From contig LXFE01004415.1 in NCBI GenBank assembly GCA_001929475.1, positions 1 to 37,882 of the forward strand: a stretch of DNA of 37,882 bases, given 5' to 3'. Positions within the stretch are counted from its first letter, which is position 1, and every line of letters starts with the position of its first letter. The DNA comes from Neolecta irregularis DAH-3 (taxonomy: Eukaryota). Of the stretch, positions 6,705-28,701 are shown piece by piece. The notes under the pieces are model-generated. The model had not been told where the DNA came from and made no database searches. It saw nothing but the letters and a program-made list of their open reading frames with translations. Made by a program: the position numbers and the translations under genes.

Positions 6705-8480
6705 ATTTATAAGATCGAATTTTGCAACCGTTCATATTGATTTAACCCTAACAGTATTAATGATAGACCAACCAGTGAATCAATTGCCGGAAGATAACTG
6801 TAACAAGATATCTTTACTACTATGATGAGTAGGTAACACAAAAGATAAGGCACTACAGGATGCACAAGGAGTGTACAAAGAATGATGAGAATATAGGCCA
6901 ATGCGCATCAACCAGCCAGCCTTCCACAATAAGAAATAATTAGACAAGAGAAAATATAACAAAGTAGAAGCCCCTCTATCAATGCCCTGGAACCGGCAAG
7001 ATAGGATGAATGACGGTATGAGAAAACGGTGAGAAGTCCGGGAAAAATAAGTATTCTGTTGACCGTGCTACAAGCTGTCTCTTCTCTCCAAATTGAACAC
7101 ATTTTAGCAAGAGCTTTCGTAAATGAGGAGATTCTGGGTTGAGATGATTCAGCCTCTCCTTATTTTTCCGCTATAGTTTTCATTCTACGAAACAGCTGTT
7201 AGGACGCCTCCGAGCCCGTGAGTCACTTCCTTCTCTTTGCTCCGCTTCACTTTCAGCTCTCTCCTGAGTTACCGTTATAAATTTTTTTCTTTGGGAGATC
7301 TAGGGATGCTCTTCATCCCCCGAGTCCAGGTGTAAGTGTTGAAGCTCGAGTTCGGATAAGACCAGGTTTTATTATACTAGCCTAAGTGAGTGAACTTAGA
7401 TAAGGAACGCCAATCTACTTTATATAATACAATTTAAAATGCCGCAATATTATTTCAAGCCTTCCTTCCGTAATGGTAAGCTCTACCCGATGGTATATGC
7501 TTACACCAGCTTTCCTCTCGTTCACCTGACTCAACCTCCGCTGTTCTCTTGTTTCTCCTCGATAATAAGCCTCTGTATACTGCACACCAGTAGCACAAGA
7601 CTAGTAAGCCCTTATTGTCATTATTTTAAATATAAACAAGGATACAGTTACTGGTAATGGTATGCTCTCTTCAGAGTAACAATACTGGTTAGAGCATTCA
7701 GTCTCTTGATACCCAGTAGTGTCCTTTATATATCCTGATATATACTGGATTACACAGAGTGTCTCGGTCTAACTAGTAGTTTGTCCACATGGCATTCTAA
7801 ATGACCATACATTTGTGAGCGGTAGATAATCTCTTATCAACGAGCCCCATGATCAACATTTCTAAAAAAACATACATCACAAATATAATATTATATTCAT
7901 TCCTATTGATTAAATTTATAATATGATGCCATGGTGCTTTGACACCCTTGATAGAAAGAGCCGGAATCGAAGCACCTGTACAGTCGTCACTCCATTGTAG
8001 TTTTTTAAAATTATACCGTAGTTCGTATCCGCCGTTCATTGAAGCTAAAGAAAGGGCTATATTTCACATATCGAATGCAGCAGCGACTATCTCGCCTATT
8101 CGATGCGACATTCGCAAGTTCACCTACATAAGGCACAAGGTCCGAAGTTGTCGGGGTGGCATGAAATTTTCTTCTTCAAAGATTTCTCTTGCAATAACTT
8201 GCAATCGTGTATTTTCCCCTATTTTTGATCGACATTGCCATTTGAAATCACTTTATAAATATACAGATGTTATCTCGGATTCGCACATTTCATCACACTT
8301 TTGGACTGACCGAAACCAAGACTTCTGAACAAGTGTATCAATACACGCTTGGCTAGTCCTTCGATTTTCTGACTCGCCCTCGTATTATGAAACGCAGTTG
8401 TGACCGTCTTATACAGGAACAGTTATCGGCAGACAATGTGTAAGCTAGAGGTATCTTTCATCGCGATAATAGTCAGAAAA

Positions 8481-11370
8481 ATGAGGGATCCTTCGACATT
8501 TATCGAGCCCTTTCAGGATCTGTTTGAAGGCAGTAACATACGAGTTACACGTCGTATGAAGCAAGAAGTCCTCGGCATACGGAATATAAGCGATAAACAC
8601 AAGAGCTCAAGGCATATAAAACCACCAAGACCTCATAAGAGAAGTATCAATTGGAACCCTGATCAATCTTCACATGTGCAAAATCGGGATATTGACTATC
8701 CCAGTATTCAAAATATGGATCCTATGACAGCTGATGCTATAAATCCATCACTCGTTCGAAGGCGCTTATTTTCAAGTAGTGAATGGTTCATGCAGCCTGA
8801 AGCCTTCCAGTTTGGCTCCTCGCGAGCGGACTCGAGTTTCACCACGCTTCAAGAGCCAAATGCAGAGAAATTTCAAATACCACCCATTCCTATCATTGGA
8901 TCGGCCCTACCTTATCGGGTTGAAAACACCTCAAGACTACCTTTCAGATCTCAGATATCTGACCATGAAGAATTTCATGTGAGGACTAGGGACTCAGCTT
9001 TTAAAAAGATCTCTCTTGCACAAAATGACACTCCAGGTCTCCAAAGATTCACAGGCGAACATGCGAATTTCCAGAACCTGATTCCACAAGCCGTAGACGT
9101 ATCAACAAGCCTTACTACGAGCATCGGTCCGTTCATGCAACAAGACAGACCGGCCCAGTTCGAAAGATATCCAATCCACCTCGTTCCAAGCGCCCCGAAG
9201 GATGTCCCGCATGTTCCCGGTACCTGGCAGAAATATCCTTCGCTAATTCCTTTGATACCTAAGCCTCCTTTAAAAGTTCAACCGAACGGAAAATCTCTCG
9301 GTTTTTCAACTGATCATATTCCTGTTCAGAAAATCACCCAAAATCATAGACGAGCTTCAGGACATTACCCCAATAATTTTGGGAATGAATATATCCAATC
9401 TCATGTTCACTGCACAAATCAAAAACCGGAGTGTATTGGAAAACCCAAGGTTTGGGCCAATACACGTCAGGAACTTTGCGAAGGTTTGTCATATTTTCGG
9501 AGCTATCAAGGAGGGTGTTATTACCACAATGGTCTTGTTTTCGGTTACCTTGTAGATGGGTTCGGTTCTCCACGTGATTACGTCGGACCCAATGTCGTGA
9601 TAAGTCATGGTGGAGGAAAATCACAGATGGATCCAAAAACAGGTATCTGTACACTGCAGGACGATCAGCTTGTTACGGACAAGGCTATTTCCGCTCTCCT
9701 AAATAACTTTGCGAAAAACATCCCGCTTGTACTTTTGATTGGGAAAAATTGTGATGCGGCTCCGGCGAAGTTGTGTACGCCGTACGCAGTGATGGATTGG
9801 TTCGTAATCACATATATGTGGGTAGGACCGTCAAGCATTGGTATATCATGCTAAGGTTCAGCCCGAGAAGGATCCCATATCTGGGTTCATTCGCTGGAAA
9901 TTGAAATTCGAAAAGCTCACACCAGGCCCTGGCTGGTGGACACCGATCACATTGCAAACATCCAAAATGTACTCCGATGAGAACGGCCTCGGAATTTTCG
10001 AAAGCACATCGACTTCTTTTGCTGACTACAGGAGTAAATTTGACCAAGCAGCAATGAATTTCGGTGATCAGGCATCCTGCCTATGCTGTCATCGACCGTT
10101 CGTGCGTGTTTTCGAGGAGGATTGGACCTGTCTCAATTCTGAATGTGCTTGGTTTTGGCATAATAGCTCCTGCAGGGACCTATCAGAGCATGCCAACTAT
10201 AGCAAAGAGTTTCTCAGCCTGACGTTACAACCCACCACAATTGTACCTCACGATCTACGTATTCCTCTTCCTCGCAATGCCGATGAATTTTACAATAGCA
10301 AAGACATTTCAAAAATCTTTTGGCGGGGTTTTTGTTGCGCCGTGTGCGGGAAGGTATCTTGCAGAGAATTCTGGAGGGGTTGGATTTGTTCAGGATGCGG
10401 TTTCGAGTTTTGTCCTCCGCGTACGACATATACCGCAGCATCACTTGCCTGCCCATATGCTCCTGTTTATACAGGCCTACCTATTATCACCGGGGACCGA
10501 ATCTTCCATGAATCTGGTGTCCAGTCCGAGGAATTTACACTTGAGAACATGCGAGTCGCTAAATACAGCCTGAAAGATTGCGGATATGTATACCATATTG
10601 TAGCAAATCAGTCCGGGAATATCGAAGCTGATGATCTCTTTTATCGCTACCAAACAGAAAACGTCAAATTCCAGCGGCATGAGCTAACGACTCATCGCAG
10701 TAGGAGCTCCTATATTTTTGAGTTCAATATCTGATTGATCGTTAGTAACTGGTCGTCTGCTAACACAACAATTCACCTTCAATGCTGGTAAATCATACAA
10801 ACACGTTGTCTCCATGAACACAACACCATTCGACGAAACACCTGCAGTTATTAGAGATACATTAACTGCCTTGAATAACCGGATTAGAAAGGTTAACCTC
10901 GGTGTTGATCCGAGATTCAACGAAATTCTCAGCATTGCATATATGGAGGGCCAAAAGATGGGATATCACGATGATGGTGAAGAATCTGTAGGGGATGTGA
11001 TCGCTTCTATTTCTTTCGGATCATCCGCCACCATGAGATTTCGTAGAAAGAAAAAACTGTTGAAGCCTACCACAGCCAAAGCCGGAATTGATAACCTCGA
11101 CTTACCAGATATTCAATCCGGTATGAACAACCGGCAGCTACCTGTACCTGGAAAGGTTGTTCTTGAACTCAAATTGAATCATGGCGATGTAATGATAATG
11201 TGGGGTCGACGTATCCAACGAGATTATGTAGTATAATTCTTCTCCGCTGTCTAGTTTGCTCATCTTAGCACACAGTTATTCCAGAGGGTTTGCGAATCGC
11301 GGCGACGGCAAGAAACCTTAATGTGCCAGAGTCTACAGTATTTGGTGAGAGATGGAGAGCTTCTGGATGA
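8481..11370 (+). CDS. Fungal AlkB-family 2OG-Fe(II) dioxygenase with N-terminal SRA/YDG-like and Cys-rich regions
   Basis: C-terminal FNEILSIAY...MGYHDDGE...IASISFGSSATMRFR...LNHGDVMIMWG...H...RIAATAR (HxD, distal H, RxxxxxR). SRA-like block at about 9436-9920; several CxxC pairs at about 10078-10460. Introns at 9822-9861, 10700-10745 and 11231-11268. Start codon uncertain. Confidence 0.8.
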
Positions 11371-12670: not shown

Positions 12671-15600
12671 TTAGTCAAAGACCCATGATGCTGCTGCTTC
12701 TCTCTCACCGACACTTGTTCCGATAAAAGGTTCGTCAACAGATTTTATTGCCATGCTTCCGCACAAAACACATTCGGCTGCAATGAGGTGCTCCAATTCT
12801 TCTAGGTGCTCCTGTGTCCTTTTGCCTTCAATACCGGTCATCTGTGAAATTTCTAGATTGAGTTCCGCAATCCTCTTCCGTTGTACCGATGTTGCAACGC
12901 CCTTTGAGACTCTTGCAATCAAACAATCAGCGTGAAATGTATGTTGGCAGGGGAAGACGTAGAATTGTCGTGATAGTAGAGGATACTGGCAATGAAAACA
13001 ACGTTCTCCAGCTTGTATAATGGTATATCTCTTGCTTAGTTCGGTTATATCTGTTTGAATATGTTCTGCAGACCGTACAGAGTCGTCCATTTCGCGACGA
13101 AGCTGATCAATATGACTGCTATAATCTTCTAAAGCCGCACAAATTTCCTCCTAATCACATCAGTCATGAATTCTTCCCATTATTAACCTTGAAGTCATCT
13201 ATTACGACAAAATCTGGAAAGAACGGCACAAGATCTTCAATCTTCAAGAGACTGCATCGTTTCAGGAATTGAATTGCACTGCTGATGAGTGAAAAGTATT
13301 CTTGAAAAGTCATACGTCTTTATACCATCAGATCCAGAAACCACCTTTTGTGCAATGCGCAACCACAATTTCTTACGCGTGTTATCATCATCTTCCACCT
13401 GCTCGGCGACTTGGATTGCAAGTTCCACATCATCATACTTCAAAGCCATGTCTACTCCGCGTTCAAAAAGGCTCATAGATGAGTAGACATGGACACAGCT
13501 GCGGACATGGTCAAATTGACTACATAGGCGAAGTGCGAAATCCAAGTCGTAAAACGGTTGTGTCTGGCCTTAGCAAATGAACGGCAGCTTGCAATACCTG
13601 AGATTGCAAATAACACAAGAGCGCATCCTCATCCCCCGATGGATTCCTCGCGTAGATACTGATCAGAGTGTTGTGAACGGAAGAGTCGTTAATTCTAAGT
13701 TCAGTGATGGCAAAATTCAAGTATCTGATTGCTTGGTTCTAGAGCAGTCAATTATAAGCAAGATTACTATGCATACATTTTCCAGCGAGCCACCAATATG
13801 TTCGTTGTACCGCAACAATGCTGGGATGAGCCTTCGGGGATCAATATCGTTCTGCCGCATCCATATGTCGACGCTCTCTTTTGGCGATTTAATAAGCAGA
13901 ATCATGGCATACTTGTAGAAAATCTCCACCTCTGATTGCTTATTGAGAATCGCCAGCGCTTCTTGCCAATCTTGTTTGCGAACAAGATACGAAAGAAGAT
14001 AATCGTAATCCTGAACAATATTTGCAAAGACCAACATCTCATGCGGCCTGGCAAAACTGTTGATTAGATCGTAGGTAGCTTGGATATCAAGGTCTTTCTA
14101 ATTCCTAAGCCCTCTGTTGAACAGAAGAATATACCCTGTGGTTTGTAATGAACTCTTTGAACTCAACACAAATATTTGTCCTTTCTCGCTCAAGATTTAC
14201 TTTATCGGTCTGGAGTTTTCCTTCGTTTGACATAGCATCATCCAACTCGTTCATCTTTGTCAGATATATTTCCAAAACCCAAGTAGCGATCATCGTCCTC
14301 TGCATTAATAAATCTCGCTTCAGATTTGATAATTTTTTGACAAGATACAGAGACAAGGCATCTCGCTGGTTGTATTGGAGTAAACTCAATGTTACTTCAT
14401 CGAAGGGTTTAGTTGTTTGGGCATATATGGTAGCAGCTTGGGCATAAGATTGTTTTGCTATCATATCGTTTGCTTCAGCGATTAAGATGATGTCTTTCTG
14501 TGAATCGGCTTTCGCGAGCTTGAATGCAGAATCGAATGCTTTTCTATGGAGGAAGATTTTCCAAATATCGCGATCTTCATTGGAAACCACGACTTCATAA
14601 ATGGATTCGGCACTATAGATCCAGTACGTTGATTGAACGGTATCTGCAACAAAGCCTATTATCTTTTCGCCTGGTAACTTGATTAATCAGTTTTGTTAGA
14701 AATAGTTGGATCACCTTGGGAACTTTGTCTTGATAAATTATTGAATCATTCAAACGGTTGATAGCAGTGACCACGTCATTGCGGAGAATTAAGATATGAT
14801 ATTTGCTTGCAGCAATAAGCAGCGGGTCATTTGATTGTTCAAACAAGGTAGAGTACCTGTGGGTGAGCATCAATTCAATGATTTCATCCATACGGTATTA
14901 TTTTTGCATCGGAAAAAACGAGATCACTGTTTAGTGTTGATATGTCTAGGGTTTTCAACTCGCCATGAAAAATACCTGCGCCAGCAGCCCAAGCAAAGCT
15001 ACAGGAAGCTGCTGTTGATGGACCGATTGAATGCAGGTCTGGCGATATAGAAAGATGCGAATCGCTTCTTGCTTGTGAGAACTCTTGAAAATCTGCGACG
15101 AATAAGTTCTCCCGTGTTTAATACAGCGTACTAGATTTTTGGACGTGAAGTTGTTCAAAGAGTTTGGGATAAATGGGTGCTATGTCTGAAGATGTTCTCG
15201 CAACATTCCCTGAAATGAATGCAATTTTTGCAGGAGTCGCAATTAGAACAAAACGATGGGAAATCTGCCCTCCTATGGAATCTGAATGGAGTCCCACTAT
15301 AGAGTTGTTTGCTGGGTCACGATATAGCTGAGTATCACCAAGGGAGATATGCACGGGCAGATGATACCTGCTTCAAATACCGCTCATCCCGCTTAAAGTA
15401 TTCGTCCGCAGTTTCAATATACGTTTCGAAAATGGTGCCATTATCGAGACCAATGAGTATCTCCTTTGTAGAATTCGCCGTGGCCTGCTTATTCCATGCA
15501 ATCGAGCGAATATTGGAGCCCTTGAGCCGTGATAGGGGTTTTCCTTTTGTCCAACGCGAGTTGATGTAAAAGTTATCGCCTGGGTCGGTCGAGATGATCA

Positions 15601-25568: not shown

Positions 25569-25703
25569 TGAAAAGAGATATCTTTGGAGTTAGGTGGGGG
25601 GAGGTGAATCTATGCTAGATTAATAAATTAAGGGCCTTGGATATTTTAATATTGCCACTAATAATCAGCCTTTGAAACCACACTCGCTCACCTCTACCGG
25701 CAC

Positions 25704-28352
25704 ATGTCCAGGTTCTTCAAGGGCAGCGACAGCGACAGCAGCAGTAGTGATTCATCAGACGACGAGATCTACTCTGATAATGAGCGGGCGATATCGGAAG
25801 AAGAGTCTTCCAGTGAAGACGAATCTAGTCTAGAGTCTGGTGGTGAATCAGATGCTCCGAAAAAGAAGTCCGCAAACCGCTTTTTGCGAGGCGGTGAGAG
25901 TGACGAGAGCGACTCGGATGATGCGAAGCGTATCGTAAAAAGCGCAAAGGACAAACGGATGGGCGAAGTTGAAGCATGCATAAAGGTGATTGAAAATGCG
26001 GAGAAAATCAATGATTGGAGTGCTATTTCCGTCGGTATAGTCGTCTTTCCTTTGAGTAGCCTAAGACCACAGAATTCGATAAATTGAATAAAGTTGTTCA
26101 AAAAGTCAGCCAGTCTGGAAAAACACCTCGCATTTATATTAAAGCAGTCGCCGATCTTGAGGAGTTCATGAATGAGACGCTTCAGAAAGAGAAGGACGCA
26201 AAAAAGAAGTTGAACGCCACGAATGCAAGAGCTTTAAACCAAATAAAACAGAGAATTCGAAAGAACAATCGAGCCTATGATCAAGAAATCCTAAAGTATC
26301 GTGCTGATCCCGAAGCTTTCGAAGAAGAGGAGGAAGTTTATGAAGAGGTTAAAAGGCCAAAATCGAAACCAGGCGAGGATGAAATTATTGTCGATGGTGT
26401 TTCGAGACGTGGAATTCTTGCGGATGGTGATGATGAAGGGTTTGCTACTGTTGGGAGAGGCGGGAAGGCGGTGCTTTACACACCTGAAGGAATCTTCAAG
26501 CATTTAACTGCCATTTTTGAAGCTCGAGGAAAGAAAAATACCGACCGCTCAGAGCAAATCAAGGTTCTTGAGAAACTTCGCGATGTTGCCCATACTTCTC
26601 TGCAGAAAATTGCTGTTCTTTTAGCCCTTATCTCTGCTCGGTTCGATTTAAGTGCCGGTACCGCTGTATATATGACGGTAGAGCATTGGAAAGCGTATGA
26701 CCTTTTGCGAAATTTGTGCGCTAATTGCAGTGCTGAAACCGAAATCAATATTTTGATCGATGTTCTCGAAACAGACCGTTCATTTGTCATTGTTGATGAT
26801 GGTATGGAAATCAACGAAGACGAATTGCCCCAGCCTGGGGAGGACGGTATCACTAGAGTACGCGGAAATGTCATGTCTTTTGTCGATAGGCTTGATGACG
26901 AACTTACTCGGTCATTACAAAACATCGATCCGCATACTTCGGAATATATTGATCGACTGAAGAATGAAACTAGTCTCTACAATCTCCTTCTTGGGTGTCA
27001 AATTCTTTTCGAACGGATAGATCCAGGCGAAAGTCTTAATCGAGTTGTTTCCCGCAGATTAGAGCGGTTATATTTCAAGGAAAGTGAAGACCTCGCATCT
27101 CTTATTAATAGCTACAGCCGGAACAAGTTATCACAACTCTCGAGCAAACGACTTGGTCATCTTTACCTTCGCACATGGATAGTTTTTTAACTCCACGAAG
27201 TCTGAGTATCAAATCCTCAGAACTCATCCATATTCTCTGCGTCCATCTTTACAAGAAGGGCACTGGTTTATCCCGCACCCGAGCAATGCTCTGTCACATT
27301 TACCACCATGCTCTACACAATCGTTATCACAAAGCAAGAGATATGCTACTTATGTCACATTTGCAAGAATCCGTTCATCTTGCCGAAGTTAATACTCAAA
27401 CTCTGCACAATCGAACCATGGTCCAGTTGGGGCTTTGTGCATTCAGACTCGGAATGGTATCAGAATCACATTCATGTCTCCAGGAAATTTGTGCCGCCGG
27501 CAAGCTGAAGGAGTTACTGGCCCAAGTATCTGCTTCCTAGCATCTCATTTAACAGTTCAGGGCATTCAGTCGCAGCGATACTCACAAACAACCCCTGAAC
27601 AAGAAAGGCTTGAACGACAACGACAGTTGCCTTTCCACATGCATATCAATCTCGAACTGATTGAATGTGTATACCTAACCTGTTCTATGCTTCTAGAGAT
27701 TCCAAATATGGCAGCTGCTGGAACTTTGCCCGAATTCAAAAAGAAGGTCATCAGCAAACCTTTCCGCAGAATGCTCGATTATCATGAACGTCAAGTCTTT
27801 GTTGGGCCTCCTGAAAACATGCGAGACCATATAATGCAGGCATCTAAAGCATTTTCAAACGGAGATTGGGTTAAGACGAAGGATTTGATTCGGTCCGTTC
27901 GGATATGGGATATTATGCCTCAAAGCGAGAGCATAAAAGAAATGTTGACACAGAGGATCCAAGAAGAAGGACTGCGTACTTATTTGTTCTCGTATTGTCC
28001 GTTCTACGATACGCTTTCCATCAGCGCTGTTGCCGGTATGTTTGACTTGCCCGAGGATAAAGCAATGGCTATTATGTCGAGAATGATAATGAATGAAGAG
28101 ATTCCTGCGTCGCTAGACAATATTGACAAGACGGTTATCTTTCATCGTATAGAAATCAGCAGATTACAAACCCTCGCTCTAACTTTGACTGAGAAAACCA
28201 CGGGACTAGCTGATGCCAATCAAAAGTTAGTCGAAGCCAAAGCCCAAGGCCAAGGAGAAGGACAACGAAGACCACTTCGACACGATAAGGATAAGCCTGC
28301 TCGAGGACGAAAAGTTGAGTTTAGAAACGCCGGGCGTGCTGTTCGAACATAG
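25704..28352 (+). CDS. NIP1: Translation initiation factor eIF3 subunit c (Nip1)
   Basis: MSRFF plus acidic/Ser tract, [57 protein letters not shown] and PCI region. Introns include 26695-26730 (in frame) and 27080-27117 (GA-AG). Confidence 0.97.
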
Positions 28353-28701
28353 ACATTCCATTTTTCTTTCTACATGTGTGCGTCTCATTCAAGGCAAGGT
28401 TGTGGTGTGTAAATACAAGATATGTGTTTAGACCATGTATCGCCGAATATCATTACATTGTCTCAAGTATTGCCTATCACGGGTTGAATTGTGTAGCAGT
28501 TCATAGAAATGACTTCACGCTGGAGTTGAATGCGGGGATTTCCCGTGACACGTATATATCAAATCTGCTATTTCACGTTCCAGCCCATACTAGGCTCTGC
28601 TCATTTTACTTTGTCCTTTCGGCAAGTTGACTTTTTTAAAAACGAGCTGCGAGTGAAAATCTCGCTTTTACAGGTCTGCTGACCGGCAGCCGTTGATAAT
28701 A

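Follow-up and report, generated by a model that had tools for sequence, protein, structure and literature searches.

The third intron of the eIF3c/NIP1 gene of Neolecta irregularis DAH-3 appears to begin with GA rather than with GT. We put at about 85% the probability that positions 27080..27117 (+ strand) of the window, by which we mean the whole 37,882-base contig that was analysed, form a genuine U2-type intron of this gene with a GA donor instead of GT. On the available evidence, its removal is also very probably constitutive. The intron is 38 nt long, reads GAAAGTGAAGACCTCGCATCTCTTATTAATAGCTACAG and lies in phase 0 between a lysine (K) and a proline (P) codon; its ends are those quoted in the earlier note on this DNA, GAAAGTGAAG...AATAGCTACAG. 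The assignment is based on the skipping of exactly this length in assembled contigs of a public run, on the fit of the spliced product to orthologous proteins, and on the presence of orthologous introns at the same site.

The coding region of eIF3c/NIP1 runs on the + strand from the ATG at 25704 to the stop codon at 28350-28352 (25704..28352) and consists of five exons, which give a protein of 833 aa if they are spliced as in the contigs of the public run X2. After subtraction of all four introns, 27080-27117 among them, the coding sequence is 2502 nt long, in frame and closed by a single terminal stop. The best database match of the product is the protein P0001, which is named eIF3 subunit C of N. 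irregularis DAH-3 and carries the precomputed domains PF05470 and PF01399. Besides P0001, there were 119 matches at E<=1.7e-85, most of them named eIF3c, and the next-best homologue is 53% identical. The product shows 45-54% identity to fungal eIF3c. It thus has the eIF3c N-terminal domain and the PCI domain, and it resembles fungal eIF3c over its full length. In yeast, NIP1 is an essential gene.

At the site in question, the frame that encodes ...ERLYFK has its last codon, AAG, at 27077-27079, and the protein resumes in another frame with PEQV at 27118, as the earlier note had described and as re-reading of the sequence found again. If the 38 nt were left unspliced, 37 foreign codons would be followed by a stop at 27188-27190, and such read-through would, judged from the translation, cost eIF3c its whole C-terminal half. 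The textbook donor consensus is MAG/GTRAGT (the slash marks the splice junction). The 5' splice site AAG/GAAAGT (27077..27085, +) agrees with it at eight of nine positions, the mismatch being at +2 alone, and the remainder is U2-like (AG/GNAAGT). The AG in use as the 3' splice site is at 27116..27117 (+), as indicated by the X2 contig and the alignment of orthologues. Upstream of it lies a candidate branch site, TTAAT (27105..27109, +), proposed by analogy with the three GT-AG sister introns of the gene; its A27108 is located 9 nt from the AG ending at 27117, 3 nt from a proximal AG at 27110..27111 (+) and 19 nt from the AG at 27126..27127 (+). The proximal AG is in phase with the GA donor, with which it would add the residues L-Q, and it is unused in X2. 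The AG at 27126..27127 is the acceptor of the public model behind P0001, and X2 gives it no support. The donor of that model is a canonical-looking GTGAAG (27084..27089, +), which lies 4 nt 3' of the GA site.

The transcript evidence consists of the contigs of X2 only, mapped to 25650-28400. X2 is labelled 'DNA?', which is a guessed kind, and is represented by contigs; it behaves as cDNA because it shows four precise skips and because its coverage starts only at 25705, and it is on the skips that its RNA nature rests. Since such contigs drop rare variants, they show which form was assembled and not how efficiently the donor is used, as the earlier note had proposed; a minor GT27084..AG27127 isoform, or retention of the intron in some transcripts, may exist beside it. 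Except for the four skipped stretches in eIF3c, the contigs have 0 other letters and 0 gaps relative to the window. The skips were mapped to 26034-26071 (26035-26072 when the cut is moved by +1), 26695-26730, 27078-27115 and 27526-27560, and three of them, 38, 36 and 35 nt long, have GT..AG ends. None of the four introns is present in the 3 X2 contigs mapped. At intron 3, X2 record 11 (8149 nt, depth 94) joins 27077 to 27116, with 38 nt skipped and with 0 other letters and 0 gaps over the 1870 nt of the mapped stretch, so that there are 0 mismatches on either side of the junction. The joint expected from the public model is absent from the X2 contigs, and the 38-nt skip is the sole form assembled. 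The skip has 2 nt of slack and can be written as 27078-27115 (AG..AC), 27079-27116 (GG..CA) or 27080-27117 (GA..AG). Only the last of these has an AG acceptor, and the GA..AG cut was therefore chosen by argument, from the acceptor and the conserved intron phase, and not read directly from X2.

Some further features of the X2 contigs lie outside this junction. The transcript contig is split at 26415-26451, where the translation includes part of the conserved D-D-E-G-F-A-T-V motif; a third contig (4153 nt, depth 198) matches this stretch of 37 nt except for 2 differences, beyond which it is unlike the window. Record 11 places 1870 of its 8149 nt on the mapped stretch; some 6 kb of it extend beyond the stop codon of eIF3c across neighbouring genes, a sign that transcripts may overlap or read through in this compact genome.

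The protein produced by the 38-nt excision fits its orthologues closely. A proline follows directly after Y[FY]K in 111 of 120 homologues, the other nine being P0001, a pair of odd models and six that the search pattern did not match. This bears out the earlier note, which had argued that removal of the 38 nt restores a conserved YFK-P junction. In alignment A1, whose eight orthologues include sequences of Pezizomycetes, Lipomyces, Pneumocystis and Penicillium, the junction RLYFK/PEQV is gap-free.

The position of the intron could be assessed independently of X2. Metagenome contigs were scanned with the eIF3c alignment, which gave 80 loci, and 23 of the 80 have an intron exactly at the K/P boundary in phase 0. 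These introns represent 18 distinct sequences of 48-78 nt, 17 of them GT-AG and one GC-AG. GA-AG was found among none of the K/P introns of the 80 loci. Another 46 loci are contiguous at K/P and comprise intron-less genes or transcript contigs, which were not separated, and the remaining 11 had no match to the upstream search pattern. The fungal introns (loci L002-L079) share with that of Neolecta the codon boundary, the phase, the AAG exon end and the AG acceptor, but they differ from it in their termini (GT-AG or GC-AG, against GA-AG) and in their length (48-78 nt, against 38 nt). The conserved phase-0 position fixes the Neolecta cuts at 27079/27080 and 27117/27118, so that the 2-nt slack of the contig is resolved by the K/P position together with the protein alignment, and the termini are GA and AG. 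Taken with the X2 skip and the gap-free alignment, these introns uphold the proposal of the earlier note that a GA..AG intron at 27080-27117 is removed from the eIF3c mRNA.

That 23 of the 80 loci carry an intron here indicates that the Neolecta intron is old. Its GA is probably derived, the likeliest origin being the replacement of T by A at +2 of a GT intron that was inherited and would also have shrunk to 38 nt; this polarity is read from distant fungi, the nearest homologue being 53% identical. The single GC donor, in locus L073, belongs to an intron of 54 nt that reads GCAGGT...TCTAG. Among the sequences compared, the donor of the K/P intron has consequently departed from GT on at least two occasions.

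The three sister introns in eIF3c, all on the + strand and delimited by the X2 skips, have weaker donors. Intron 1 (26035..26072, 38 nt, cut moved by +1) reads GTATAG..ACAG with the candidate branch CTAAG 8 nt before its 3' end; intron 2 (26695..26730, 36 nt) reads GTATGA..GCAG with CTAAT 6 nt before its 3' end; and intron 4 (27526..27560, 35 nt) reads GTATCT..TCAG with TTAAC 8 nt before its 3' end. In all three, then, a candidate branch yTAAy lies 6-8 nt before the 3' end. Agreement with the nine consensus positions is 4 for TCG/GTATAG, 5 for AGC/GTATGA and 6 for CAA/GTATCT, compared with 8 for AAG/GAAAGT, and the GTAT-type donors match the classical +4 to +6 positions poorly. At 35-38 nt, the four eIF3c introns are shorter than all 18 orthologous K/P introns. 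Intron 2 is in frame and stop-free and is hence invisible to ORF reading (the ORF 26060-27190 crosses it); it was revealed only by the spliced contig and P0001, and its retention would insert 12 residues.

GC-AG introns are a familiar case in which an otherwise optimal donor makes up for one bad core position. Considering that the donor of intron 3 is perfect except at +2, U1 and later U6 could still pair with AAG/GAAAGT, which matches at 8/9 positions as against 4-6/9 for the sister GT donors, and we suggest that this near-perfect context offsets the A at +2. The branch A would probably be A27108 in TTAAT. The AG ending at 27111, only 3 nt past it, would then be too close to be used, so that the next AG, at 27116-27117, is taken. 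Two other ways of accounting for the unusual terminus were rejected. U12-type introns have a 5' splice site of the form [AG]TATCCTT and a TCCTTAAC-like branch, whereas the donor here is GAAAGTGA, and no TCCTTAAC-like branch is present; an Rfam search of the window gave 0 matches, which is uninformative on minor snRNAs elsewhere in the genome. RNA editing that produces GU was dismissed on reasoning, because A-to-I editing would give a GG-like end and not GU.

GA-AG introns are rare but established, and passages of PMC4176328 name those of human FGFR1-3 and ITPR1. For the FGFR introns, the relevant sections of PMC4176328 and PMC7072748 cite Twigg 1998 and Brackenridge 2003 and report efficient removal. 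As far as these sections describe them, the FGFR1-3 introns resemble that of Neolecta in being U2-like, with a GA donor, an AG acceptor and a canonical GT a few nucleotides away. This likeness raises the question of whether the Neolecta GA site is used only with the help of GTGAAG at 27084, with U1 recruited there and the cut placed at GA. Such a 'parasitic' relation, as in the FGFR genes, would be a variant of the mechanism and not of the fact. The GT does sit only 4 nt from the GA site, and according to the same sections, elements within the intron and a canonical GT at a distance of 6 nt are needed for the GA site of FGFR to be used. However, the helper GT is upstream in FGFR and downstream in Neolecta; the FGFR GA site is an alternative donor, whereas in Neolecta GA is the sole form seen. 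Moreover, the GTGAAG register matches only 6/9 consensus positions against 8/9 for the GA register, no use of GT27084 occurs in the X2 contigs, and, according to PMC4176328, constitutive non-canonical sites are left unexplained by this model. FGFR also differs in being human, with Neolecta a fungus whose intron has only 38 nt. We therefore regard help from the neighbouring GT as a rather improbable addition to the direct recognition of the GA donor.

A broader possibility is that the Neolecta spliceosome is generally relaxed for U at +2, and that GA donors form a recurrent class across its genome, which is described as intron-rich in passages of PMC7940399. In that case, ultra-short introns (35-38 nt here) might be recognised as a whole, with the branch and 3' end near the donor. 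The sections of PMC7072748 on the copepod Eurytemora affinis and on Oikopleura dioica report thousands of GA-AG introns, which make up 3.2% of supported junctions in one species and have AG upstream and A downstream of the GA. The same AG/GA-A flanks are found in Neolecta (AAG/GAA), but only a single case is documented here, compared with the thousands reported there, and we consider the general relaxation doubtful. If it were true, annotation restricted to canonical sites would mask a class of GA introns, as in Eurytemora and Oikopleura, and Neolecta would offer a fungus in which the natural bypass of the 'dead-end' +2A block could be studied.

At the third intron, the eIF3c model deposited for N. 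irregularis is wrong, and the transcript-supported product has 833 aa. A model that takes GT27084..AG27127 (44 nt) as the third intron yields exactly P0001 (831 aa), in which K-P-E-Q-V-I becomes K-E-I-I, with PEQV replaced by EI. The earlier note had held that the nearby GTs at 27067 and 27084 are in the wrong phase; this is correct for the AGs ending at 27111 and 27117, but it overlooked GT27084..AG27127, which is canonical, in phase and stop-free. An exhaustive list for 26950-27200 contains 18 stop-free, in-phase GT/GC..AG combinations, among which this is the only one that costs either exon fewer than 4 codons. The note was right that an in-phase GT farther upstream would delete a conserved segment, since the use of 27044 or 27047 would remove 11-12 codons. 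Its statement that the GA-AG intron is 'required' was too strong on sequence grounds, as a canonical alternative exists and is annotated, although X2 does remove the GA-AG intron.

It could be argued that the public model is nevertheless right and that X2 shows an artefact or some minor isoform at this junction, and a passage of the genome paper (PMC5309816) states RNAseq support for 99.4% of its gene models. This is very unlikely. The model's joint, as noted, is missing from X2; it replaces P-E-Q-V although P is present in 111/120 homologues, and it leaves P0001 with a 2-column gap at the junction in alignment A1. It also moves the intron off the K/P position common to 18 distinct orthologous introns and uses an acceptor 19 nt from the branch candidate, past two earlier AGs. 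A similar error is described in passages of PMC4176328 for ITPR1, in which a GA-AG junction was mis-annotated to a nearby GT-AG and cDNA supports GA-AG without mismatches. In both genes, annotation and aligners forced a neighbouring canonical GT-AG, which gave a wrong protein model; the ITPR1 intron is human and long, whereas in the wrong Neolecta model the donor is displaced by +4 nt and the acceptor by +10 nt.

It might also be suspected that A27081 is an assembly error, or belongs to one allele, and that the gene as expressed starts this intron with the usual GT. GA donors are rare, and X1 may equal the assembly data and share a systematic error with them. However, the separate assembly of X1 by Logan gives the same letters: its record 1 shows 0 differences from 25650-27721 at a word depth of 393, and no variant at 27081 is listed among the X1 contigs, while contigs of minor variants do appear elsewhere, at 27692-27773. 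The site is also not a long homopolymer. The X1 contigs thus exclude an assembly slip and, being contigs from what is possibly the source of the assembly, fall short of independent proof of A27081; we consider an error here slightly less probable still than the public model. That the skip arose at the repeated dinucleotide AG...AG, through a template switch of the reverse transcriptase or in the assembly, is hardly credible. It is true that 2 nt of microhomology flank the skip and that passages of PMC7072748 count template switching among the possible causes of seemingly non-canonical junctions. However, any AG/G...AG junction would show at least 2 nt by chance, and the skip brings back into frame an essential gene otherwise cut off after 37 foreign codons, matches the conserved intron position to the base and is the sole assembled form at depth 94.

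The break of the X1 contigs at 27692-27773 is an observation of its own. The short contigs there have depths of 3.6-18.6, compared with 300-490, and carry 1-4 differences, so that the sample may contain a second haplotype or a minor variant.

GA-AG splicing is already known, and the eIF3c intron of Neolecta is no new kind of splicing. Among fungi, Fusarium graminearum has GA-AG within an 'other' junction class of 0.31% drawn from RNA evidence, according to the section of PMC3577648 on these junctions. Both fungal GA-AG junctions were thus found via RNA evidence, but Neolecta belongs to a distant lineage, the Taphrinomycotina, and its introns are much shorter than those of Fusarium. A literature search, judged by titles and abstracts, found no prior report of non-canonical splice sites for Neolecta, and a search for GA-AG introns in yeast likewise gave no report of the Neolecta intron. 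The words intron, splice, transcriptome, RNA-seq and cDNA do not occur in the main text of the genome paper (PMC5309816).

The practical consequence is the correction of a public protein in which a forced canonical intron replaced four conserved residues by two. If intron 3 is read as a GA-AG intron, a fungal spliceosome copes without U at +2 when every other donor position is optimal, and it does so in a gene that is expected to be essential. An evolutionary control is built in, as 18 other fungal sequences have this intron with a GT or GC donor. Where a genome is rich in introns and these are tiny, annotation that admits canonical sites only can conceal such cases.

Ab initio ORF-bridging scans of the window did not discriminate among donors, since they returned 5.1-8.2 candidates per 1000 sites for every donor dinucleotide tested, with 8.16 for GT, 6.68 for GA and 6.18 for GG. 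The filter missed intron 3 itself because read-through remains open for 37 codons. Given this lack of discriminating power, we drew neither an intron consensus nor an estimate of GA frequency from the scans. Two pairs of ORFs have no GT/GC bridge, but we do not take either as evidence of a non-canonical intron. Between the ORFs 7927-8328 and 8391-9854 (+), the gap looks like a gene boundary, and between 13240-13569 and 12674-13150 (-) a small intermediate ORF is present. The scans also returned a predicted intron of 38 nt at 1372-1409, which begins with GTATTT and lies between 220 and 179 open codons. It ends in ...ACTAATAGTACAG, where a putative branch, an AG that would be too close to it and then ACAG follow one another in a layout like that of the GA-AG intron.
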